A DNA stretch of 21,164 nt, from the IMG/VR virus record IMGVR_UViG_3300033120_000816; one strand, given 5' to 3'. Origin of the DNA: a virus (taxonomy: Duplodnaviria > Heunggongvirae > Uroviricota > Caudoviricetes). The translations under genes were made by a program, and so were the position numbers. Positions 1 through 19,262 of the stretch are shown piece by piece (position 1 is the stretch's first letter; each line of letters begins with the position of its first letter). The notes under the pieces are model-generated. The model was not told the DNA's origin. It did no database searches and saw only the letters and a program-made list of their open reading frames with translations.

Positions 1-3000
1 CGTAGCAATATCACAAAGGTATGCTGCTGCTTGAAAATCATTCCTAATTTCAAACTGAGAAATTAACACTCTTGACACCTGACCCTTTTCTGATACCACA
101 TTTGGGATATAGAATAACGGCTGAGACAACTGAGTAGGTAAGCCGGGTAATGTCTCTTTGGTGTATATCTCTATCCATAGGTACCTTTTTACAGTATCCG
201 GCTCTGGGTTTACTACAGGGATTACGTAGCACGGGCACTGCTCTCCATAGTAGTTTGCGTACGAGACTCCCGTTAGCGTAGCTCCTTGGTGGTGCTTGTA
301 TGGGAATCCTTCTTTGAATGAGAAAAAGTTCCTGCCAGAGTAGTAGCTACCTATATTCCCATACATTTCTCCAGTGTATGACCTGAACCCTTTTAGTAAG
401 CCGCTCTCAAAATCTACAGCCATCGTTTCATTTAATGGGAGAGATAGCGATGGTTCGTTGTTTATGTATGACCTAGTTATACCTTCTTCTACACTTCTCT
501 GTATAAAAAACGTTAGGTTGTACTCACCCGTTCTTGGATCTATGCCTGCTACTGGATAATATAAATTGCCTGGGTTTCTGTTGGCCATGTTTATGTATGC
601 CAACTTATTCATCAAGTAACCTGAGTAGCCGCCTATTATACCACCCTCTGGGTCAAATGTGCTTATATCTCGGCTGGCGTTGAAGTTGTTTTGTATCAAC
701 CTACCCTCTGAGTCTAACCATATCACTTTGCCTAGATACTTCGCTATGGAGTTTAGGTTTTTGTTTGTGCACCCATACGGTGTCCCTGAAGGTCTCTGTG
801 GGCTGGTAAATGGCCCATACTGATTTGTAGCGCTCACCAATCCGTCTGCGCCTACGCTTAACTGAGATTGATTGAACCCAGATAAGAAGTGGTCTGACTC
901 ACAAATAAACAACACTCTTCCGACTTCCATAAAGGCTGCGTTGATATTCCCCCAGGTGTTGCGGTCAAACTCGTAGATATTCTTATCCTCAAAGTAAGAG
1001 AACCCTGCCAAGTTGCTTCGGTCTGTTGTGGTAGCGCTCAAAGCAACCTCGGTACCTATCCTTCTTTGAGCTTCGTATGGATTAACTGTTCCTACACGAC
1101 CTCTATTTGCTAAGTGGCTACCCCAAAAGTCTGAGGGCGACGGAGACTCAAAATAGAATGGGTATGCAGTGGTGGCATCATTAACACTCATTACCAAAAC
1201 ATTATTGTTGTTGGCAATGTTGTTTGTGGCATATCCGCTACCTGCTAGTGTGCTGTCTAGGTCCGTACTGGTGTACTCTATTGGATTGGGAGGCGTAGCG
1301 CCAGGAGCAAGCGGTCCGGGTTGTCCTTGCAGTATCGGAACGGGGAGTAGTCTTGATAACAAGTAGCTATCAAAGTATGGGATTACACCTATTCTATCTG
1401 CATCAGATATTCTGCCGTCTACTATGTCTATTACCTTGCACTGTTCGTAGTAGATATAGTTGGTTTGACAACTTTTTGGTCTGATAATTCTGAACAGACA
1501 TCCATTGGTTAAATCTAATAGTTCAGCTCTGAAGTCTACAGTAAAGAACAGGCCACTACTGTCATAGGTTACTGCAGAAGTTAATCCCATTGGCAGGAAA
1601 GAACCATCTCCATTCATGAAGAACTGCACCGTATCCCCAGAGGTAGATGTTTGTGTCCCGTCACTTCCGGTTGTTAAGAACTGCCATCTACAGTTAACTA
1701 GGTTGTTGTTGACTTTTTTGTACTCATTCAGTGAACCGTAGTATATTCTGACTTTTGTGGGATTTACCGTGTTTGTGGTGCCAGTGTTATCTATAAACTG
1801 CACATAGTCTGCTGACCAACTTAAAAAGTCCGAGAATATGGTATTCTCGGTTACACAGAAGGTCATTTTCTTAAACACAGAAGGCACTACAAATGAAGGA
1901 TCTATATTATACCCTATCTGCGATAACATAACTGCCGGGTACGGGGGATTGAACGTATCGTTGATGTTGGGCATTGTAACAAACCCACCATCCCCTTGCC
2001 TTATCTGAGCAAATGTTCGTCTGCCTATGTTGTCATATAAGAACACACCAACTCCGTATCTACCCCCAGTCTGCACCCCTTTGCTGCCAGAGGACACAAG
2101 AGACACAAACACATCGTCTAGCACCGTATCTCTATCGCCTCCACAATCCACGTATTCTACTTCCGCGTTGGGGAGATAACTGTCACACCCTCCACACGCT
2201 GTCCACCTACATGCCCCTAGTTGCCCGAATATCAACTCGTCTCCAGAGTTTGCCGGGTCTGAGTAGTCAGGAACAAGATTTGACAGGAATACGTATGGTG
2301 GCGCACTAGGGAACGGGACCGATAGGTAGTCATACCTGTTATGGGCTATGAGTATCACTTTGCCGTTTGAGTCTGTAGTCCCAACAGCACCCTTGGTCAT
2401 AACTATTGGACTGTTTTGTAGCCCAGTTTCTGTATCACATAACAACATAGATTGCTCAACAGTCCTCCTTGCTGCTGCCGGATATTCTGGCATTAACCAA
2501 GTTGGTCCAGCTACAAAAACAGCATTGTACCAGTTACCGCTAAATCCACCACACCCACCAACTCCACTTCCGTTTCCGTGAAGTATACCAAGCCCAAGAT
2601 AATTTATTATCGTTATTGGTGGTTCGTAAGAAGCGCCATCACAGACACTTAAAACTATATCTACAGCACTTATGCCAGAACCCGCACTTTTGGCAAAATA
2701 AAACCCATTGTGATCTGTAAAAAAAGACCCATAACCAATGTCCGTTCCCGGAGAAGCCCCGTTTAACCTCCAAGATATAGGGCTCATTTCTATTGGCACT
2801 CTTTGCCCTTCCTGTTCGCACAAATAACCATCTATGGGTCCAGAAGACCCACCGCTTAAATCCAATATAACAAACATCGGAGACAGAGAGTCTGTATAGT
2901 AAACATCTCCTGCAGTACAATCAATAACCAATTCTTTAATTGGATTTTGAGCGTAGTTCCTTCTGTCAAGTGGAACAAATGCAGCCCCAAGTGTTGTATA

Positions 3001-4665
3001 TCCAGCTACGTAGGTACTGGTTTGTTGATAGTTTACATCTGTAACCTTTGCTTTGTGTGACGCAGCGCGCATAACATACTTGCCTGCTGGCACCCTCATC
3101 ACTATTCTTAACATTGGCTCCCCTAGCGCAGGGTCTAGGACTGAAAAGTCTGGGTTGCTAGTGAAAACTCCTGTAGAGATATTTAAACTACCATACTCAG
3201 CTATGCAGTAGTACTGAGTTCCTGCCATGTAGAATATGAAGCCGGGGTTGTCTTGGTCTCCAAAAACCTGATCTACCTTAAAAGAGTTTGGGGTCCCGCC
3301 AGAACAATCCCCGTCCTCATTCCCCCAAACAACCTTATCAAAAGAATTTCTTATTCTACCACTATCGTCGGATAGTGGGTTGTAGATGCTTGCGTAAAGC
3401 AGTATAGTTCTTACTGGAGGTGCAGAACATGGAGCTTCTTCTGGTATTGCTGGGAAAATATTTATCTTTTCTAGCTCCTCTGGCACCATGGGTTGAAATC
3501 CTCTTACATTGTTTACTAGCGCTACTCTTTTGTTTGGAGAGAAAACACTTGTAGACGATCTAGGAATAGGATTTTCTACCAGTGTCGTTTCTTCTTCAGG
3601 AATAGGCTGGCAGTTTTTATCCGCACAGAATGTGTAATTTATTTTGTTTGTTAGAGGGTTGTAGTAGGTGGTGTTTGGCGCCCTGTCATACCATTGGACA
3701 CCTGGCGCATGTACCCACTTGGTGATAGTATCGTATTTTATCCACCCAGTTTGTAGCGCTCCTGCTCTGTCGTTGCCAACCCATCTTCTGTACTCTATCT
3801 GTATGTAGTCAACTAATGGATTGCCGCCGTCAAAATCTAATAACAGACATCTTGGAGTTGAACTGCTGGGAGATATACACCCACCCCCAACAATACTTAC
3901 CCATGCGTTGCTTATTATACCATGAATACTCTCCCTGCCAAATACGTCTATGAACTTTACTCTGAACTGATAGCCGTTTCTTACGAGCATGTTTTGCTTA
4001 TCGGCGTCTTCTGGCTCTGAGGGAACTTCGTTTACGCCTATACAACTTAACGGAGAAGGAACTCCTAAAGATATTAGGGTGTCTCTGTCATAAAACAACC
4101 CAGCACCATCAAAATACGGGGCTGTAGTAAATGAATCAGTGGCTATTGAGTCTGTAACAGATATGCAGAATTGACCATCCAGTGTGTTGTTGGTAAATAT
4201 TAGGAACTTGTAGTTCGTTTCTTCGCCTGTGTCCGGATCAATGTACGCCTTTAGCTGCATCGTCACCCTGCCAGCGCTTATAAAGTGTTCGGGGTCAAGC
4301 GAGAATGGCAAGTTGTCCCCCTCATAAACCTTAGTTACAGAACCATCGTCACCGGATATTACCCATATACTGTGGGAGTCTAGCGAATTATGCAAAAAGA
4401 AATACCCCTCATTTGTTTCATCGGAACTATAGAAACCAACACACGTATTTTCGCCAACGGAAAATTCGCCAACGGGCATTACCTCATTCCCTTCCATTGG
4501 AGTCCATACGCCAGCATTTGCGCCCGCCCTTGCTTGGGTTTGTGGGTTTTGATTTACTGCCGCAGTCATGTTTTTCATGAACTGCACCATATCCTTTGGT
4601 AGCGACAATTCATCAAGGTCAAGATTGACTCCTTTAAGGAATGTCTGAGGGAACTTGTAAGGCAT
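1..4665 (-). CDS. Large virion protein, probable crAss-type tail stabilisation/muzzle protein (P22 gp10-like); 3'-partial, >=1555 aa
   Basis: Manual translation from ATG at 4665 (MPYKFPQTFLKGVNLDLDELSLPKDMVQFMKNM...) is open to base 1 (...AAAYLCDIAT). The track misses it because no stop lies in the window. The N-terminal GxNxDxD..LP...N motif, YQFRVKFIDVFGRES and C-terminal NPEPDTVKRYLWIEI resemble recalled crAss-like stabilisation-protein motifs. ORF reality is near certain; the product call is less so. Confidence 0.7.
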   Translation of the reverse strand, partial: MPYKFPQTFLKGVNLDLDELSLPKDMVQFMKNMTAAVNQNPQTQARAGANAGVWTPMEGNEVMPVGEFSVGENTCVGFYSSDETNEGYFFLHNSLDSHSIWVISGDDGSVTKVYEGDNLPFSLDPEHFISAGRVTMQLKAYIDPDTGEETNYKFLIFTNNTLDGQFCISVTDSIATDSFTTAPYFDGAGLFYDRDTLISLGVPSPLSCIGVNEVPSEPEDADKQNMLVRNGYQFRVKFIDVFGRESIHGIISNAWVSIVGGGCISPSSSTPRCLLLDFDGGNPLVDYIQIEYRRWVGNDRAGALQTGWIKYDTITKWVHAPGVQWYDRAPNTTYYNPLTNKINYTFCADKNCQPIPEEETTLVENPIPRSSTSVFSPNKRVALVNNVRGFQPMVPEELEKINIFPAIPEEAPCSAPPVRTILLYASIYNPLSDDSGRIRNSFDKVVWGNEDGDCSGGTPNSFKVDQVFGDQDNPGFIFYMAGTQYYCIAEYGSLNISTGVFTSNPDFSVLDPALGEPMLRIVMRVPAGKYVMRAASHKAKVTDVNYQQTSTYVAGYTTLGAAFVPLDRRNYAQNPIKELVIDCTAGDVYYTDSLSPMFVILDLSGGSSGPIDGYLCEQEGQRVPIEMSPISWRLNGASPGTDIGYGSFFTDHNGFYFAKSAGSGISAVDIVLSVCDGASYEPPITIINYLGLGILHGNGSGVGGCGGFSGNWYNAVFVAGPTWLMPEYPAAARRTVEQSMLLCDTETGLQNSPIVMTKGAVGTTDSNGKVILIAHNRYDYLSVPFPSAPPYVFLSNLVPDYSDPANSGDELIFGQLGACRWTACGGCDSYLPNAEVEYVDCGGDRDTVLDDVFVSLVSSGSKGVQTGGRYGVGVFLYDNIGRRTFAQIRQGDGGFVTMPNINDTFNPPYPAVMLSQIGYNIDPSFVVPSVFKKMTFCVTENTIFSDFLSWSADYVQFIDNTGTTNTVNPTKVRIYYGSLNEYKKVNNNLVNCRWQFLTTGSDGTQTSTSGDTVQFFMNGDGSFLPMGLTSAVTYDSSGLFFTVDFRAELLDLTNGCLFRIIRPKSCQTNYIYYEQCKVIDIVDGRISDADRIGVIPYFDSYLLSRLLPVPILQGQPGPLAPGATPPNPIEYTSTDLDSTLAGSGYATNNIANNNNVLVMSVNDATTAYPFYFESPSPSDFWGSHLANRGRVGTVNPYEAQRRIGTEVALSATTTDRSNLAGFSYFEDKNIYEFDRNTWGNINAAFMEVGRVLFICESDHFLSGFNQSQLSVGADGLVSATNQYGPFTSPQRPSGTPYGCTNKNLNSIAKYLGKVIWLDSEGRLIQNNFNASRDISTFDPEGGIIGGYSGYLMNKLAYINMANRNPGNLYYPVAGIDPRTGEYNLTFFIQRSVEEGITRSYINNEPSLSLPLNETMAVDFESGLLKGFRSYTGEMYGNIGSYYSGRNFFSFKEGFPYKHHQGATLTGVSYANYYGEQCPCYVIPVVNPEPDTVKRYLWIEIYTKETLPGLPTQLSQPLFYIPNVVSEKGQVSRVLISQFEIRNDFQAAAYLCDIAT

Positions 4666-4688: not shown

Positions 4689-4706
4689 CAAAGTTATGCA
4701 AAATTA
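4689..4706 (-). promoter_or_regulatory. Two tandem Bacteroidetes -7 boxes (TAATTTTG, TAACTTTG) upstream of the tail gene
   Basis: + strand CAAAGTTA 4689-4696 and CAAAATTA 4699-4706 read TAnnTTTG on the minus strand. No clear -33 TTTG; that zone is occupied by the parS palindrome. Confidence 0.5.
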
Positions 4707-4710
4707 AGAA

Positions 4711-4726
4711 TGTTCCACGTGGAACA
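4711..4726. promoter_or_regulatory. parS: parS-type centromere site TGTTCCACGTGGAACA within a 30-bp perfect palindrome (4704-4733)
   Basis: TTAAGAATGTTCCAC|GTGGAACATTCTTAA read directly. The central 16 bp fit the bacterial chromosomal parS consensus TGTT(T/C)CACGTG(A/G)AACA. Confidence 0.8.
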
Positions 4727-4729
4727 TTC

Positions 4730-5017
4730 TTAAAAACCGTTTGAACAACTTGTGCCAGTCGGGCCATGTACGCTTTGGAGGTACGCCTCTTGTTTATCAC
4801 ATGCTTTAGATGCAGCCTCCTTTGTTTGGTTTGGATACATGTACTTTACCGTTGTGTCTTTGGTTTTCTTACGGTACTTGCAGGTGCACACCCAATTACT
4901 TTTGTTCTCTTCTTTGCTGTTTTGGCAAGAAGAAAAAAGAAGTGCTATTGTTGACAATGAGAAAAATGCCGTTATTGCCGTGAATAGTAACGCTAATTTT
5001 GTTATTGTGGTTTTCAT
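4730..5017 (-). CDS. Small lipoprotein (signal peptidase II type) with four further Cys
   Basis: MKT..K basic N-terminus, hydrophobic stretch, lipobox LFSS-C, then QNSKEE, similar to the Bacteroidetes K(D/E)2 surface-export signal. Confidence 0.75.
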   Translation of the reverse strand: MKTTITKLALLFTAITAFFSLSTIALLFSSCQNSKEENKSNWVCTCKYRKKTKDTTVKYMYPNQTKEAASKACDKQEAYLQSVHGPTGTSCSNGF

Positions 5018-5019
5018 AA

Positions 5020-5469
5020 TTACTGTTTACCATATGAGGCCCTGAGCATCCACGCCATCTTCTCGTGCTGCTCCATGATGCCGGTTAAAAAATTTGCTGT
5101 TCCAAAGTCTTCCGTTTGGTTGACTTCCTTTATGTACTCTCTAAGTTCAGTTATCAATACCTCATGAGCGTCTAGTAGCTCAGGTATTATATCCCCAGAT
5201 AGCTTGTTTATCTTTGTTATGTAGTTACCCGAAACATCCGCAAGCTCTCCCAGTGAGCGTATTCTTTCAGCTATACTATCTACTATGCTAGATATTTCTT
5301 CGTACTGCTTGCCAAACATTTCATGCAGCCCATAGAATGACCTATCAATTACATTCCAGTGAGCATGAAGTGTTTTTATATACAACTCAAACTCGCTAGT
5401 CAGTATGCTTGCTAGGTTTTTTACGGAAGATTCTACCTGCTCTTCGGGAATTCCTATTTCTGGTATCAT
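5020..5469 (-). CDS. dps: Dps family DNA-protection/ferritin-like protein
   Basis: HWNV..F..LH and D.IAERIRSLG ferroxidase motifs; C-terminal DFGTANFLTGIMEQHEKMAWMLRA. Confidence 0.93.
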   Translation of the reverse strand: MIPEIGIPEEQVESSVKNLASILTSEFELYIKTLHAHWNVIDRSFYGLHEMFGKQYEEISSIVDSIAERIRSLGELADVSGNYITKINKLSGDIIPELLDAHEVLITELREYIKEVNQTEDFGTANFLTGIMEQHEKMAWMLRASYGKQ

Positions 5470-13037: not shown

Positions 13038-13088
13038 TTTGATTTTATTTATTTTTACTTTTCTTTTGAAAATCTTAATAATTTTCAA

Positions 13089-13119
13089 CAAAGATAGTTT
13101 GTTTTTACTTTTCTGCAAA
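13089..13119 (-). promoter_or_regulatory. Leftward Bacteroidetes sigma-70 promoter
   Basis: Minus strand TTTG (13119-13116), 19 bp spacer, TATCTTTG (13096-13089): full consensus and spacing. Confidence 0.8.
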
Positions 13120-13155
13120 TTTTCTTAAAAAATTTTATTTTCTCAACATTTAGTG

Positions 13156-13163
13156 TACTTTTG
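13156..13163 (+). promoter_or_regulatory. Rightward promoter -7 box TACTTTTG
   Basis: TAnnTTTG 21 nt upstream of ATG 13185. The -33 zone is T-rich but imperfect. The box overlaps a palindromic repeat copy. Confidence 0.6.
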
Positions 13164-13184
13164 GTCAAGCAAAACACACAGCAA

Positions 13185-13757
13185 ATGGGATTCAAAACAA
13201 TTAAGATAGGCGACCCCTGCACTATAAAGTCATCGGGGGAGCTTGGAGAAGTTGAGGATATAATTAAAGGTAAGTATAAAGTAAGTGGGTCTGAGGAGCT
13301 GTTATTTGCGCATGAGATACTTACAATACCCAAGAAGACAGAGCCAAAATTACCCAAACCTATAAAGAGAACAGAGAAAAAACCTTTTGCTGAAGTTTTG
13401 CTTAAGCAAAAATTCAGCAAGAGTATCAACAAAGTGAGTGACAAACAAAAAAAGTACAACAACATATACACTATTGTCGCTCCAAAATTCAAAATAAACA
13501 ACCCAGAATGTCTTGCTCGCCTACCTGGTTGTACTGTTGTTACCGAGGAAATCCACCACATGTATAAAAGAACTGGGCACTGGCTGGTGATGTCAAAATA
13601 CTTTCTACCAGTGTGCAGATGCTGCCACCGGACCATAACAGACAATAGCGCAATGGCTATTGAAATGGGATTATCTATATCAAGGATGGTGGAATTAGAG
13701 CAGGAATACACCGAGGAAGAGCAGCTATTAATTGATAAAATCTTCAAAAAAGACTAA
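13185..13757 (+). CDS. HNH endonuclease with small N-terminal beta domain and Lys-rich linker
   Basis: C.ARLPGC...EEIHH...R.G...FLPVCRCCH..I zinc/HNH pattern. Start moved from TTG 13161 to ATG 13185. Confidence 0.8.
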   Translation: MGFKTIKIGDPCTIKSSGELGEVEDIIKGKYKVSGSEELLFAHEILTIPKKTEPKLPKPIKRTEKKPFAEVLLKQKFSKSINKVSDKQKKYNNIYTIVAPKFKINNPECLARLPGCTVVTEEIHHMYKRTGHWLVMSKYFLPVCRCCHRTITDNSAMAIEMGLSISRMVELEQEYTEEEQLLIDKIFKKD

Positions 13758-13810
13758 AAAATACATTTTGCAACAGTTTTGCTTGAGCAAAACGCTAAAC
13801 AAACATAAAA

Positions 13811-14905
13811 ATGGCTAAAAAAAAGGATTTCTACTTAAAGTTTGACTTTAAGGACTTTTCAACCGACATCCAACTAATGAAGTGCTCTCCAGCAACAACA
13901 GGAGTGTATATTAGGCTTATATGCTTACTCTGTCAGACTGAATCAAGAGGGAAGTACGAATTAGGAGAAGATTTTACTGCAAAATTTGCTTCAATTTTGC
14001 TTAAGCAAAACGTTGAGCAAAAGAATGAGCAAATAGGCAAGCACCTGCTTGACGTTTGCTGTGGAATTGCTGATGATATTGGTAGACTTTTGTCGTACGA
14101 AAGAGAGCATATTGTCTCTGCATTTATGGAGCTTCTGAAACACAATGTCATTTATTTGGAGGATAAATTTATTTGTCAAAAAAGAATGATTAGAGATGCG
14201 GAAATCTCTAAGATGCGCGCCAGTAGCGGAAGGAAGGGAGGTTTGGCTTCTATTAAAAAACAAAAAAAGGCACCTAAAAAAACTGATGATGCTTTTGCTC
14301 AAAATTTGCTTGAGCAAAATGTCAAGCAAAAGCCTAACTATAACTATATCTCTATTAATAACACTAATACAGAGATAGGGGAAGAGAAAAAAGAGAAAGA
14401 GGGTATAGGAAATGTAAGAGGGGTGCAGGGGGACGAAAATTTGGGAGAAAGAGAAAAAAGAGAAACCCCAAAAAATAATTTGCCGCCGCAAAATTTGAAT
14501 TTCAACCTTCACGACACTTCGAAAAAATCCACCAAGACCCTGACGCTGGATGCTGGGGACCTTCAGCTCTTGGCAAATTTCGGGGAGTCGGTTCGGGTAG
14601 AGTGGTTGGTTTGGCGGCAGTACCTTCTCGACGCACATAATAAAAAAACTGATAATATTCAGGTCAAGCAGCAGCAACTTGAAAAGCTGGCGATACTCTC
14701 GAAAGGCGACGAAGATTTGATTGTGAAAATTATTCGAAATTGCATCGCAAATGTGTGGCCAAATTTGCACCCATTACCCGCCTCAAAATCTCTGCAAAAC
14801 GGACCAGTTCTCCAGCCACTTTCCGACATCGACCAGCGAATCGCAGCCGAAACAGACCCGAAAAAGAAGATAGAATTGCAGCGAGAAAAATATGCCTTTC
14901 CTTAA
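13811..14905 (+). CDS. Phage replication initiator/replisome organiser (DUF1376/YdaU-like N-terminus)
   Basis: N-terminal F.F.DF.TD..L......GVYIRL.C; low-complexity linker; C-terminal W..W..Y....H.K....L..L.KGD....IIRNCIAN.W. Lies directly upstream of the DnaC-like ATPase. Confidence 0.75.
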   Translation: MAKKKDFYLKFDFKDFSTDIQLMKCSPATTGVYIRLICLLCQTESRGKYELGEDFTAKFASILLKQNVEQKNEQIGKHLLDVCCGIADDIGRLLSYEREHIVSAFMELLKHNVIYLEDKFICQKRMIRDAEISKMRASSGRKGGLASIKKQKKAPKKTDDAFAQNLLEQNVKQKPNYNYISINNTNTEIGEEKKEKEGIGNVRGVQGDENLGEREKRETPKNNLPPQNLNFNLHDTSKKSTKTLTLDAGDLQLLANFGESVRVEWLVWRQYLLDAHNKKTDNIQVKQQQLEKLAILSKGDEDLIVKIIRNCIANVWPNLHPLPASKSLQNGPVLQPLSDIDQRIAAETDPKKKIELQREKYAFP

Positions 14906-15053: not shown

Positions 15054-16142
15054 ATGGAAAATGTTAATGAAATAATGAGCTTCCAAAAGTTCATAGAAAA
15101 CAGGTATCCAAACTACCAAATTGACCCCTACAATGAGGGTGAAATTGAAGCCCTAAATTTGTGGGCAAATCGGTCCTCAGAATTCGAAAAAAAATACCCA
15201 AAATTTTCCCTGCAAAAAGGGTGGATTTTAACAGGCAATGTAGGCACCGGAAAAACCGATTTGATAAAAATGTTTCAGAACTATTTGGGCAGGTATCTGA
15301 AGAGTAATTACAAATTCAGCCTGCATGTTGCTTGGAAACTAGCAGCTGATTTTACAAAAGAAGGGTATACTGTCATTAGCGATCACGAAAAAGGGAACCG
15401 ATATTACGATGAATTGTGCCTTGTGGATGCCAGAAATCCGTACCCTATTAGAGAGACTGTAACCAACTATGGTAACAAATTACTGATAGGCGAGGAGATT
15501 ATCATGTCGCGCTACAACTCCCTGAAAGATTACGGATACCTGACTCACTTCTCTACAAATGCCACAACTAAACAGCTTTTGGATATATATGGAGAGAGAG
15601 CGTACTCAAGATTGACCGAAATGTGCAATTTTATGCTACTTACGGGACCAGATAGAAGAGGCACAGCATCCAAACCAAACATATACGTAGACCTAAACAA
15701 CCCAACTAAAAAAGAAGTCCCCAGCGCCCCGGTATCAGATTACGAGCACCAGCAAATCAAAGCAAACCTAGAAGCAAACTACACAAATTACCTTAACACT
15801 GGAGTAATTGACAAGCTACTCGCTCAGTTGGATTATAACGTACTCATTACTTATGGCTGCAACCTTGGAGGGCAAGAAGAACTGGATAGCTTAACTTTTG
15901 CCGCAGCAAAAACTTACCAAAAGAAACAAAGTGTGACTGGTGGGCAGAGTGCAGGCGAACCGATAGTGTATATAGAGCCTACCCAATTTGAAAACGAAAA
16001 GGCTAAGAGGATACATTCTGTCACTGAGGCTAAAGCAATTATGGTTGAAAACTTTTATATAGCACTAAAACAAGGTGGAAGTAAGAGTATTTTCGGTATG
16101 GTTGATGTTAATGTATCAGAATTGCTACACATGCAAAAATAA
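15054..16142 (+). CDS. DnaC/IstB-like AAA+ helicase loader with C-terminal extension
   Basis: Walker A GNVGTGKT, Walker B YYDE, FSTN, YGERAYSRLTEMC...GPDRR. Confidence 0.85.
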   Translation: MENVNEIMSFQKFIENRYPNYQIDPYNEGEIEALNLWANRSSEFEKKYPKFSLQKGWILTGNVGTGKTDLIKMFQNYLGRYLKSNYKFSLHVAWKLAADFTKEGYTVISDHEKGNRYYDELCLVDARNPYPIRETVTNYGNKLLIGEEIIMSRYNSLKDYGYLTHFSTNATTKQLLDIYGERAYSRLTEMCNFMLLTGPDRRGTASKPNIYVDLNNPTKKEVPSAPVSDYEHQQIKANLEANYTNYLNTGVIDKLLAQLDYNVLITYGCNLGGQEELDSLTFAAAKTYQKKQSVTGGQSAGEPIVYIEPTQFENEKAKRIHSVTEAKAIMVENFYIALKQGGSKSIFGMVDVNVSELLHMQK

Positions 16143-16271
16143 TACAAAACCAAAGCCCTACTTAACATAATGTAAAACTTTTTTCAAAACATTTCATTCT
16201 AATTTATAACATGACAAAATGGCTGATTTTAAGTAAATTTTAAAACTATTTTGGCAGAAAATCACACAAAT

Positions 16272-16535
16272 ATGAGTTTAAATTCTAATTACACACCAAA
16301 AGGTATCCCAGTTCAAGGGTGTTATCTTAACAATCTGCTCCCACACGCTGTTGTTTACGAGCATGAGATGTTTTATACTATGCTCTGTATCTATCCACCA
16401 AAGGCCAGAGTCAATGGGTTTGAGAAAATCTATCAAGATGTAAAGGAAAAACTTGGAGAAGCACTGCTCCCGGTATATACACTGGTTCCTAAAGGAAGTG
16501 TGAGGAGTTATTTTGTATTGTTTGTAAGGAAGTAA
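16272..16535 (+). CDS. Hypothetical protein
   Basis: ATG 16272 follows the atcacacaaat leader; the track uses TTG 16251. Confidence 0.6.
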   Translation: MSLNSNYTPKGIPVQGCYLNNLLPHAVVYEHEMFYTMLCIYPPKARVNGFEKIYQDVKEKLGEALLPVYTLVPKGSVRSYFVLFVRK

Positions 16536-16546
16536 AAAATAAAATT

Positions 16547-17356
16547 ATGATTAGCGAAGTTTTTAACATGGATTGCGTAGCGTACATGCAGACATTGCCC
16601 GATATTTTTTTTGATTTGGCTATTGTAGACCCTCCGTATGGAATTGGTGAGTCGTCAAAAAACCACACTAGCAGGAATACTCCAATTACTCAGAAGAACG
16701 GGGTATTGATGAAAGCTCCCAAGACCAACTATAAGAAAAAAGATTGGGACAAAAAGCCGCCTGAGCCTGTTTATTTTCAGGAACTAAAAAGAGTAAGTAA
16801 GCGCTGGTTTGTATTTGGAGCTAACTACTATCCTGAAATATGTGGCACTCCATTTAAAGCACCTAAGAGAGAGGATTATGATAAGTTTATTTCTGAACAC
16901 CCTAAAGGATGGATTATCTGGGATAAGGTAAACGGAGGCAATGATTTTAACGACTGCGAGCCGGTATATACTAACATGGATATAGATAGTTACGTGTTGC
17001 CTTACATGTGGAACGGCATGATGCAGGGCAAGTCAATACATGAACCCTACACCATGCAGGGAAATAAAAAGCTGAATGAGAATAGAATACACCCAACGCA
17101 GAAGCCAGTTGTATTGTATAGGGCGCTTATTCAAAAATACGCACAGCCGGGTTGGAAGATATTTGATAGCCACATGGGTAGCCAATCCAGCCGAATAGCA
17201 GCGTATCACATGGGATTTGATTATTGGGGTTGTGAACTTGACGAAGAGTACTTTAATAACGGTAATAAACGTTTTATACGTGAAACAATGCAACAGTCAC
17301 TATTTACACCAACTATTGCCAAAAAGGAAACAGTTCAACAAAATTTATTCCAATAA
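16547..17356 (+). CDS. Orphan DNA methyltransferase (N6-A/N4-C, beta class)
   Basis: Catalytic DPPYG near the N-terminus, HPTQKP, SAM-binding FDSHMGS near the C-terminus. No restriction gene adjacent. Confidence 0.93.
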   Translation: MISEVFNMDCVAYMQTLPDIFFDLAIVDPPYGIGESSKNHTSRNTPITQKNGVLMKAPKTNYKKKDWDKKPPEPVYFQELKRVSKRWFVFGANYYPEICGTPFKAPKREDYDKFISEHPKGWIIWDKVNGGNDFNDCEPVYTNMDIDSYVLPYMWNGMMQGKSIHEPYTMQGNKKLNENRIHPTQKPVVLYRALIQKYAQPGWKIFDSHMGSQSSRIAAYHMGFDYWGCELDEEYFNNGNKRFIRETMQQSLFTPTIAKKETVQQNLFQ

Positions 17357-17360
17357 CACC

Positions 17361-17390
17361 TTGCATGTGTAAATAAAAACACTACCTTTG
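17361..17390 (+). promoter_or_regulatory. Bacteroidetes promoter
   Basis: TTG (17361-17363), 19 bp spacer, TACCTTTG (17383-17390); ATG at 17407. Confidence 0.75.
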
Positions 17391-17406
17391 TAAATACACA
17401 ATAGAC

Positions 17407-17646
17407 ATGCCTACAAAATGTAAAAGGTCAGGGAAGGAGCGGCACCACACGGAAGATGATGCTCAGGAAAGGTTAAGTGTTTTGTCAAAAACAAACCGTT
17501 CACGAAAGCCAGTAAGGTACTATCACTGTGAATATTGTAATGGGTATCATCTTACAAGCAAAGTGATGGTAATAAAACAAGGAGATATCCCACACCCAGA
17601 GCTGTTTGAGAAGTATTTGATTAAGAATGAAGAAATAGGAGACTAG
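17407..17646 (+). CDS. Small Cys/His (zinc-finger-like) phage protein
   Basis: C..GK....A....R.Y.C.YC.GYHLTS pattern recalled from phage proteins. Confidence 0.75.
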   Translation: MPTKCKRSGKERHHTEDDAQERLSVLSKTNRSRKPVRYYHCEYCNGYHLTSKVMVIKQGDIPHPELFEKYLIKNEEIGD

Positions 17647-17676
17647 ATTTTTTAACCCCCAATATAAAAATAGAGT

Positions 17677-17946
17677 ATGGAAATGAGTACACATATGGGC
17701 CTTAGTGTAGAAGGTGCATTAAATGCCATCAAAAACAGAAACAACAAATCCATGAGTTTTGCTCAGCACGACGATGGCAGAACTATGACAATAGGTGAGT
17801 TAAAAGACGTACTGAGGAAAGCCTTGAGAGAAGGTAAGAAAGTCCTGCCTACTGGTGAATGCGACAATTTTGACTACCAAAGAGGATGCAGAGGACACTA
17901 CACATGTATTACAAAAGACATAGACTTCGAAACAGGAAACGGCTAA
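17677..17946 (+). CDS. Hypothetical phage protein
   Basis: G.KVLP.G.CDNFDYQ.GC.GH motif recalled from phage hypothetical proteins. The start could be the second ATG. Confidence 0.7.
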   Translation: MEMSTHMGLSVEGALNAIKNRNNKSMSFAQHDDGRTMTIGELKDVLRKALREGKKVLPTGECDNFDYQRGCRGHYTCITKDIDFETGNG

Positions 17947-17986
17947 CAAAATTAATTACCCAACTAAAAAACAATTTAATAAAATA

Positions 17987-18358
17987 ATGGAACACACAAG
18001 AACCACTCCCGAACAATCGGTAATACTTAAAAAGATTGGGTATGATGTGCCCGATACGCATTACTGGAACGCACATTTAAATTTAGGTTTTATAAAAGAA
18101 GAGGGAGAGAATTGCAATTACAATAAAGATTATACATGGTACTATACCCGACCAAAATTAATAGATGTGTTGTTATGGCTACGTGAGGTTAAAGGATGGC
18201 ATGTTTATGCAGATAGCAGTAGGGAGTGGTGTACATGGTATCCCGTATGTGTTCCCAAAGGAGGCAGTTTTGATACGGGTACTGAGGGATTTAACACACA
18301 CGACCTTGCATTATCGGCAGGGGTTGATTTTATACTTAAAAAACTTGAAAAGATATGA
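17987..18358 (+). CDS. Hypothetical phage protein
   Basis: 123-aa ATG ORF after an A-rich leader; ATGA coupling to the next gene. Confidence 0.75.
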   Translation: MEHTRTTPEQSVILKKIGYDVPDTHYWNAHLNLGFIKEEGENCNYNKDYTWYYTRPKLIDVLLWLREVKGWHVYADSSREWCTWYPVCVPKGGSFDTGTEGFNTHDLALSAGVDFILKKLEKI

Positions 18359-18645
18359 CACCCACCCAACAAACTAAACTAGCCGAATTGCTAGTAGACA
18401 AACTAGCAGCGCACCACAATCAAACTCCCGACCCGACACTACCACCTAGTATTCGCCTGAACAACATTAAACAGAAGATGCCATTGGCTAAGGTGCTGTA
18501 TGATATGATGAGAGAGGCGTACACTAACGGTTGGCAAGATGGTTTTAGGAACGGCATATGCAGAGGTGATGGCAACTACAGCAAACCTAACCGAGCCGAA
18601 TATGCACTAGAAGATTTTGAACACTTTTTAAACAACATAAAATGA
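18355..18645 (+). CDS. Hypothetical protein
   Basis: 4-bp start/stop overlaps with both neighbours. Confidence 0.7.
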   Translation: MTPTQQTKLAELLVDKLAAHHNQTPDPTLPPSIRLNNIKQKMPLAKVLYDMMREAYTNGWQDGFRNGICRGDGNYSKPNRAEYALEDFEHFLNNIK

Positions 18646-18857
18646 AAGAATGTGCCTGCTGCCCTACTAAGCTAGTAAATACTAGAGAGAAGTACTGTTC
18701 TAATAAGTGTAGACGAGCTTACAAAAACGGATCTATTTTACTAGCCAACGGGACGAGGAGAAGAAGGTTTAACAACTTTAACTACACTCTAAAAGTAGCA
18801 TTGTCGGAAGCTATATCAAATGGTGATGAATTTGTTACGGTAAGATTTGACGACTAA
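18642..18857 (+). CDS. Small Cys-rich hypothetical protein
   Basis: C.CC......KYCSNKCR zinc-ribbon-like pattern; coupled start. Confidence 0.65.
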   Translation: MKECACCPTKLVNTREKYCSNKCRRAYKNGSILLANGTRRRRFNNFNYTLKVALSEAISNGDEFVTVRFDD

Positions 18858-18875
18858 ATAAACAAACATAAAACA

Positions 18876-19262
18876 ATGAAAAAGATCTACATCTCAGGAA
18901 GAATAAGTGGGCTTACAATAGAAGAATCCACAGCCAAGTTTGCAGAAGCAGAAAAGATGCTTAACGATAAGGGTTGGGAGTGTATCAACCCTATAACGCT
19001 GGTTCCGTTTGACCCAAAATTAGATTGGGTAGACTACATGGTAAAAGACATAGAAGCAATCCTGCGTGATTGTGATAGAGTCTACATGTTGGATAACTGG
19101 GGGCAGTCAAGAGGCGCACGGGTTGAGCGAGCAATAGCTATTGAGGAGGGTATGAAAGTGTATTATTTTGAAAAAGATGTGCCTTACAGAACAATACCCG
19201 GCAACAATGTCCCGCAACAGCTGTCCAAAACTGAGTTAGAAATAATTCATGAAAATATTTAG
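18876..19262 (+). CDS. DUF4406 family (nucleoside deoxyribosyltransferase-like fold)
   Basis: IYISG.ISGL....F..AE..L...G....NP...W.DYM..DI..L..CD..YML.NW..S.GA..E. Confidence 0.88.
   Translation: MKKIYISGRISGLTIEESTAKFAEAEKMLNDKGWECINPITLVPFDPKLDWVDYMVKDIEAILRDCDRVYMLDNWGQSRGARVERAIAIEEGMKVYYFEKDVPYRTIPGNNVPQQLSKTELEIIHENI

Follow-up and report, generated by a model that had tools for sequence, protein, structure and literature searches.

In the literature we searched, phi29 is the only virulent phage that has been described experimentally as borrowing the ParB protein of its host through a host-type parS site. This Bacillus phage carries five such sites, which are bound by the host Spo0J/ParB, and its genome becomes entrapped in the spore (Meijer et al. 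2005, in the account given by PMC2731898). On bacterial chromosomes, parS is a 16-bp inverted repeat with the consensus TGTTNCACGTGNAACA. The site of Pseudomonas aeruginosa and P. putida is identical to TGTTCCACGTGGAACA, and that of Myxococcus xanthus is one base off this sequence (PMC7022226, PMC4368675). The B. subtilis site reads TGTTNCACGTGAAACA. ParB can also act on transcription: P1 ParB silences nearby genes. In P. aeruginosa, ParB represses the promoters beside parS3 and parS4 (bioRxiv 10.1101/151340, PMC5521831).

The locus described here lies in a stretch of 21,164 nucleotides of DNA from an uncultured phage, analysed as a whole and referred to as the window. A first-pass annotation had proposed that it contains a palindrome with a parS core of the chromosomal type, flanked by a lipoprotein gene and a tail gene, and that neither parA nor parB is visible in the window. 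Re-analysis confirmed the palindrome, the type of its core and the lipoprotein neighbour, and found the description of the other neighbour as a tail gene to be reasonable. The relevant features of the window are as follows.

1-4665, minus strand: giant gene that runs off the window, assigned to a crAss-like tail muzzle protein by its fold and language-model features
4689-4696, minus strand: promoter-like box TAACTTTG, an exact match to TAnnTTTG
4690-4703, minus strand: U-rich tail UUUUGCAUAACUUU, directly 3' of the stem
4699-4706, minus strand: a second, overlapping TAnnTTTG match, TAATTTTG
4711-4726, no strand assigned: parS core TGTTCCACGTGGAACA, 16 bp, at the centre of the 30-bp palindrome
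4730-5017, minus strand: lipoprotein gene, 95 aa, with a signal peptide and an LFSSC lipobox
5020-5469, minus strand: gene for Dps, a ferritin-like DNA-binding protein (phrog_3636), the penultimate gene of the upstream operon

The palindrome TTAAGAATGTTCCACGTGGAACATTCTTAA occupies positions 4704-4733 and is perfect over its 30 bp (15-nt arms, 100% complementarity, spacer 0). It separates the lipoprotein gene from the giant muzzle gene, and the TAA stop codon of the former (4730-4732) lies within the 5' arm of the hairpin that the palindrome can form. The core has no mismatch to the chromosomal consensus and agrees at all 16 positions with the parS published for P. aeruginosa and P. putida. A search of the window for TGTTCCACGTGGAACA with up to three mismatches returned this single match (expected 0.08; a match occurred in 8 of 100 shuffles). 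Half-parS heptamers are not enriched in the window (6 found, 5.6 expected). Scans of the window ORFs for the ParA, ParB (ParB_N) and integrase families gave no match, in keeping with the first-pass annotation as far as parA and parB are concerned. The phage thus resembles phi29 in carrying a chromosomal-type parS with no ParB gene found in the 21-kb window. It differs in having one site, a candidate for ParB binding that is fused to a terminator hairpin, and in having sister lineages that have lost the site. The pay-off of forespore entry cannot apply in Bacteroidota, the presumed host phylum. To our knowledge, Bacteroidota do not sporulate. The site also differs from chromosomal parS/ParB-CTP complexes, whose sequence it shares, in being a viral single copy that is not beside oriC or parAB and that overlaps a transcription signal.

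The Bacteroidota affinity of the phage is drawn from the relatives of its Dps protein and from the promoter motif discussed below. Dps has homologues with the PF00210 domain, and its closest cellular relatives, at about 45% identity, are from Bacteroidota (Flavobacterium, Chitinophagaceae, Ohtaekwangia and similar taxa). For the lipoprotein, only five homologues were found, all of them from related phages; throughout this phage group, the Dps gene lies directly upstream of the lipoprotein gene. The upstream minus-strand genes encode, in addition to Dps, DUF2528 and DUF6378 proteins, an RNase_T-type exonuclease and an SbcC-like ATPase, and the opposite strand encodes a DnaC-like loader and a DNA methyltransferase. 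The window contains a 40-bp near-perfect palindrome at 13384-13423 (20-nt arms, 90% complementary), in or near the minus-strand ORF 13085-13747 and close to the divergent region 13747-13811, where two transcription blocks part.

The giant protein exceeds 1,555 aa within the window; in relatives its length is 1,609-1,617 aa. Neither Pfam nor PHROG gave a match above threshold, and a search of PDB sequences gave none at all. Its language-model features score 0.96 to crAss_MUZ clusters, and two of its homologues have weak, sub-threshold matches to crAss_MUZ_C (PF25729). An AlphaFold model of its N-terminal 450 aa (pLDDT 68) retrieved 7qok_A and 7qol_P, the muzzle protein of phicrAss001, as the top two Foldseek matches with E values of 1e-6; the next match was at 1e-2. 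Taken together, the language-model, sub-threshold Pfam and Foldseek results make a tail gene a reasonable assignment and suggest that the phage is probably crAss-like. The crAss_MUZ Pfam profile gave no match among the IMG/VR relatives, in a search that had no positive control.

As the genes on either side are read from the minus strand, the palindrome should be transcribed as a hairpin that is followed by UUUUGCAUAACUUU. The minus-strand RNA folds into a 13-bp stem with an ACGU loop (-16.9 kcal/mol, z -4.4) and is the top-ranked terminator-like hairpin of the window, located on the coding strand. The element has the hallmarks of an intrinsic terminator, namely a stem-loop and U-tract at the 3' end of a gene and a structure that is kept by compensatory change. 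As in Rho-independent terminators, the stem-loop and U-tract follow a stop codon and the stem pairs covary. Three properties are unlike those of such terminators: the stem is AT-rich, with G-C at 4 of 13 pairs; the U-tract is short, consisting of UUUU followed by GCAUAACUUU; and the upper stem is more conserved in sequence than pairing would require.

Relatives of the locus were reached through the Dps, lipoprotein and muzzle proteins, the search with the last of these giving 84 homologues. Other routes returned nothing related: no GenBank phage record was similar to 3 kb of window DNA, the Dps query found no related loci in IMG/VR, an alignment of the muzzle N-terminus from close relatives found none in IMG/VR and the JGI metagenomes, and an exact look-up of the window Dps returned no contig. 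A flank-anchored DNA pattern gave a single chance match (L126) and none in IMG/VR. Including the window, eight lineages contain the hairpin, in the following states.

Window: 30-bp perfect palindrome; parS core exact
L123/L124: TTAGGAATGTTCCACGTGGAACATTCCTAA; core exact, compensatory A-T to G-C change in the outer stem
L131: outer stem abolished by the insertion of a 122-aa gene at the left arm; core exact, with the 20-bp core intact
L216: outer arms and flanks unlike those of the window; core exact, 18-bp palindrome
L129/L130: outer arms and flanks as in L216; core 15/16, central G>A
L120/L121/L122/L128: TGTTCCACGTAGAATA; core 14/16, with a G.U pair and a mismatch close to the loop
L125: TGTTCTACGTAGAATA; core 13/16, mismatch repaired by a second change
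L217/L218: TGTTCTTGACGGAACA; GCCGAATGTTC-TTGACG-GAACATTCGGC; core 11/16, GC-clamped outer stem, centre replaced

The core is thus exact in four of the eight lineages, matches at 15/16 positions in one, and has decayed to 14/16, 13/16 and 11/16 in the other three. Three deeper lineages (L219, L213 and L214/L215) have a different upstream region with no parS-like site, and relatives with a muzzle identity of 61%, 55% and 47% have none upstream of the gene. In L213 (2440-2460) and L219 (1420-1440), which have no palindrome, a different conserved motif, TTAATTCCGCCAA, is found about 50-60 nt upstream of the muzzle gene, where it could act as another kind of regulatory element. A tree of the muzzle N-terminus has the topology (L213,L214),(L219,(L217,((window,L123,(L120,L125)),(L216,L129)))). 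Parsimony on these sequences assigns the exact parS to the ancestor of the six-lineage clade and has the exact core decay twice, once on the branch leading to L120 and L125 and once in L129. The first-pass annotation had held that a hairpin surviving in relatives without the 16-bp sequence would reduce the element to a terminator; three of the eight lineages show precisely this state, and four retain the exact core. Its suggestion that conservation of the core be compared with that of the flanks gave an equally mixed picture, the core having survived scrambled flanks between the window and L216, yet having decayed in three lineages and being absent from the three deeper ones.

The search for further sites and segregation genes in related phages, which it had also suggested, revealed one site per 20-kb locus. 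In 91 kb and 73 kb of two IMG/VR records from the deeper lineages, there is no integrase, no ParB_N domain above threshold and, with up to two mismatches allowed, no parS beyond a single match that looks like chance; the 73-kb record has one sub-threshold ParB_N hit. A near-site at 17272 with two mismatches was judged to be due to chance. Seven relatives (L120, at 15753-19187, L121, L123, L124, L216, L217 and L219) encode a GroEL-like Cpn60 of about 534 aa together with a 595-aa partner that contains a Cpn10 domain, both in convergent orientation to the muzzle gene. These phages carry a chaperonin pair of their own, whose co-chaperonin is unusually long. The start codon of the muzzle gene is GTG in the lineage of L120 (10803) and L125 (7098), and ATG in the window, L123, L216 and L129.

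The hairpin is maintained across all eight lineages by compensatory and G.U changes, with folding energies of -10 to -19 kcal/mol, and the T-rich tail is retained in every hairpin-bearing relative. In the eight-lineage alignment, 89% of the cells assigned to stem pairs are paired, compared with 38-51% when the partners are slid; 6 of 13 stem pairs have changed on both sides. The covariation score is 0.31 versus 0.16 in shuffles and was reached by 0 of 500, but all of these pairing statistics are soft, as they come from only eight sequences. The first-pass annotation had not treated a hairpin function as primary. Such a function is shown by the compensatory and G.U repair of pairing in the three lineages that lack the 16-mer.

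These observations raise the possibility that the element functions as an RNA hairpin only, be it an intrinsic terminator, an attenuator or a transcript-stabilising stem-loop, and that its parS identity is an accident of the stem, even if ParB binds to it. We consider this a tenable explanation, albeit a doubtful one. It accounts well for the universal presence and compensatory evolution of the stem-loop, for its rank as the best terminator-like match in the window and for the G.U pairs, which work only in the coding-strand RNA. It is also consistent with the variation of the centre CACGTG in four lineages (CACATG, CACGTA, TACGTA and TTGACG) and with the fixation of a compensating C>T change by L125 on a very short branch. 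Three lineages restored pairing rather than sequence, which makes the parS dispensable. Stems evolve slowly in any case, so that conservation of the core could partly reflect the hairpin constraint alone. Moreover, at an estimated 1 in 16,384 per perfect palindrome, a few chance coincidences of terminator and parS are expected across some 250,000 windows.

Other features of the relatives are poorly explained by a hairpin alone. The window and L216 are separated by 0.39 changes per residue on the tree, and their outer arms and flanks can no longer be aligned, yet they share an identical 18-nt stretch that makes up the upper stem and all four bases of the loop. The stems of L216 and L129 are weak as terminators (z about -1.5). 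In L131, the core has outlived an insertion that removed the outer stem: the extra 122-aa gene (1012-1380) separates the lipoprotein gene from the palindrome. The junction of this insertion is inside the left arm, which suggests that the element travels with the muzzle-gene side.

A different explanation of the palindrome is a DNA-level hairpin or cruciform that serves replication or packaging, for example as part of an origin or as a pac site. The site borders a block of replication genes (exonuclease, SbcC-like ATPase and DnaC-like loader), as would befit such an element. However, on the opposite DNA strand the G.U pairs of L120, L125, L216 and L217 would turn into C.A mismatches; the constraint therefore acts on one strand only, in the manner of RNA. 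The palindrome is surrounded by neither iterons nor AT-rich unwinding elements, and distant relatives do without it. We regard a DNA-level function as highly improbable.

The occurrence of the motif in other phages bears directly on the question of accident. An exact 16-mer is expected about once per ~5 Gb scanned, and chance is therefore not excluded by the window alone. It is excluded by the conservation of the core in relatives and by the over-representation of the 20-mer AATGTTCCACGTGGAACATT, which is present in at least 119 IMG/VR viral contigs (L001-L119), compared with 0 for the reversed control. The flanks of the 20-mer are unrelated, the contigs span 23% to 70% GC, and 96 of 136 sites are located outside ORFs of at least 100 aa. 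Of 108 distinct contexts, 79 have a palindrome that ends with the 20-mer, which indicates that most copies are not terminator hairpins. Six contexts extend it by at least 4 bp (0.4 expected), suggesting that a minority is fused to hairpins, as in the window. The exact motif is thus about a thousand times more frequent in phage contigs than expected by chance and mostly located outside hairpins, which argues against the hairpin-only explanation and makes it far more likely that an exact parS in a phage has been selected than that it is accidental.

Most phages with the 20-mer appear to have no ParB of their own: ParB_N was found in only 6 of 55 tested records, and in 2 of the 13 records rated at least 90% complete by CheckV. 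Several contigs carry two to four copies of the 20-mer (four in L095, three in L025 and L100). A BLAST search with the 30-mer matched 205 GenBank phage records, those of the phi29 family among them. At 3392-3421 of L091, a 40.8-kb IMG/VR phage, a near-identical 30-bp palindrome, TTGAGAATGTTCCACGTGGAACATTCTCAA, lies between a stop codon and the start of the next gene. We rejected kinship as the reason, because the phage is unrelated and flank sharing of this extent is expected by chance among ~108 contexts.

Comparison with the parS of the host lineage, also proposed in the first-pass annotation, supports the designation as host-type, the lineage being presumed. The exact 16-mer is present at 18 sites in 13 of 201 sampled Bacteroidota genomes, compared with 0 for the reversed control. 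The chromosomal copies are often paired within 2-5 kb. Chitinophaga pinensis has two exact copies and TGTTACACGTGTAACA within 5 kb, a Mucilaginibacter genome has one exact copy, and Flavobacterium granuli has two copies of the one-base variant TGTTTCACGTGGAACA. As Bacteroidota chromosomes use this variant of parS, it is fair to call the phage site host-type, at the level of this phylum sample. Additional GAA...TTC flanks were considered as a host parS signature and rejected, as the chromosomal flanks in Bacteroidota have no consensus beyond AT-richness.

The muzzle gene begins 38 nt past the hairpin, and the promoter-like box TAACTTTG is located in this interval, 13 nt downstream of the 18-bp core ATGTTCCACGTGGAACAT. 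The box matches TAnnTTTG, which we take to be the Bacteroidota -7 promoter motif. The sigma-AB promoters of Bacteroidota combine a TAnnTTTG at -7 with a TTTG at -33, some 19-21 nt upstream. No TTTG was found at the usual spacing from TAACTTTG, where the palindrome lies instead. Seven of the eight lineages have the box unchanged, and its 13-nt spacing is the same in the clade of L216 and L129; L217 has the hairpin but not the box. Judging from the motif, TAACTTTG is a putative promoter of the muzzle gene, and a protein bound to the palindrome would cover the upstream half of this promoter. In the window as a whole there are 43 matches to TAnnTTTG on both strands (25.7 expected; 0 of 100 shuffles reach 43), an excess that fits a Bacteroidota-type promoter vocabulary or simply the T-rich composition.

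This arrangement could also be that of an operator, with some other transcription factor of phage or host binding to ATGTTC-N6-GAACAT over the -33 region and switching the tail gene. Whereas the centre and the outer arms vary, none of the eight lineages has a change in the inner arms ATGTTC and GAACAT, and the fixed 13-nt distance to TAACTTTG and the missing TTTG make an activator or repressor site plausible. Phage regulators usually have several operators, and neither the 21-kb window nor any 20-kb locus of the relatives contains a second copy of the palindrome. There is also no HTH or regulator family among the neighbouring ORFs, the hairpin of L217 has no promoter box to go with it, and the exact parS identity would remain a coincidence. 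An operator for a different protein therefore seems quite unlikely to us.

A hairpin alone poorly explains the lineages with an exact core, and a parS alone poorly explains those in which it has decayed. The dual-purpose reading that follows from this is that the palindrome combines a terminator-type RNA hairpin with a host-type parS that is used by the host ParB; on the sequences at hand, we give this reading an even chance of being correct in full. Its main premise, inherited from the first-pass annotation, is sound in that the site is a genuine chromosomal-type parS which is enriched in phages and whose core is ancestral; it falls short in the three of eight lineages that keep only the hairpin.

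According to the dual-purpose reading, the stem-loop and U-tract of the minus-strand transcript would end or attenuate the Dps-lipoprotein operon ahead of the promoter-like box of the muzzle gene. As double-stranded DNA, the top of the same stem would present a perfect parS of the host type in the window lineage. The ParB-CTP clamp of a Bacteroidota host should then nucleate on the phage genome at this single point, with the host ParB as the presumed reader, given that the phage apparently has none of its own. Whether ParB binds to the site, and whether binding is of benefit, are matters on which we judge the odds to be balanced. If ParB is recruited, the use that we rank first is to position or retain the phage genomes while carrier-state cells divide; carrier state and pseudolysogeny have been discussed as open issues (PMC8375218). 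Ranked second is the local silencing of the muzzle-gene promoter under the site. This option is suggested by the overlap of the parS with the upstream part of the promoter-like region, where ParB nucleation could silence the adjacent gene, by analogy with the repression by ParB at P. aeruginosa parS3 and parS4; unlike those cases, the promoter here is predicted from the TAnnTTTG match only. Titration of ParB by replicating phage DNA, which the first-pass annotation had offered as an alternative to segregation as an episome, would rank third. The single site, the lack of parAB and integrase genes among the window ORFs and the loss of the site in sister lineages argue that any role of ParB is auxiliary.

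A more general form of the idea is that some crAss-like phages, which persist for long periods in Bacteroidota and are non-lysogenic, hitch their replicating genomes to the host ParABS system through a single parS, so that both daughter cells inherit them, while clamps loaded at the terminator hold the late genes down. We think it unlikely that this holds as stated.

The present analysis shows that this exact parS is strongly over-represented among contigs of uncultured phages from many hosts, most of which have no ParB of their own to go with it, and that one copy occurs in a phage, probably crAss-like, of a non-sporulating phylum. Should ParB turn out not to be used, the lesson of the locus would be a cautionary one, namely that the stem of a conserved terminator may look like a perfect parS. 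Should ParB really be used, the site would offer a testable handle on how non-lysogenic phages such as the crAss-like group persist in dividing hosts, and the relatives would provide a natural allelic series (exact, 15/16, 14/16, 13/16 and 11/16) on similar genomes.
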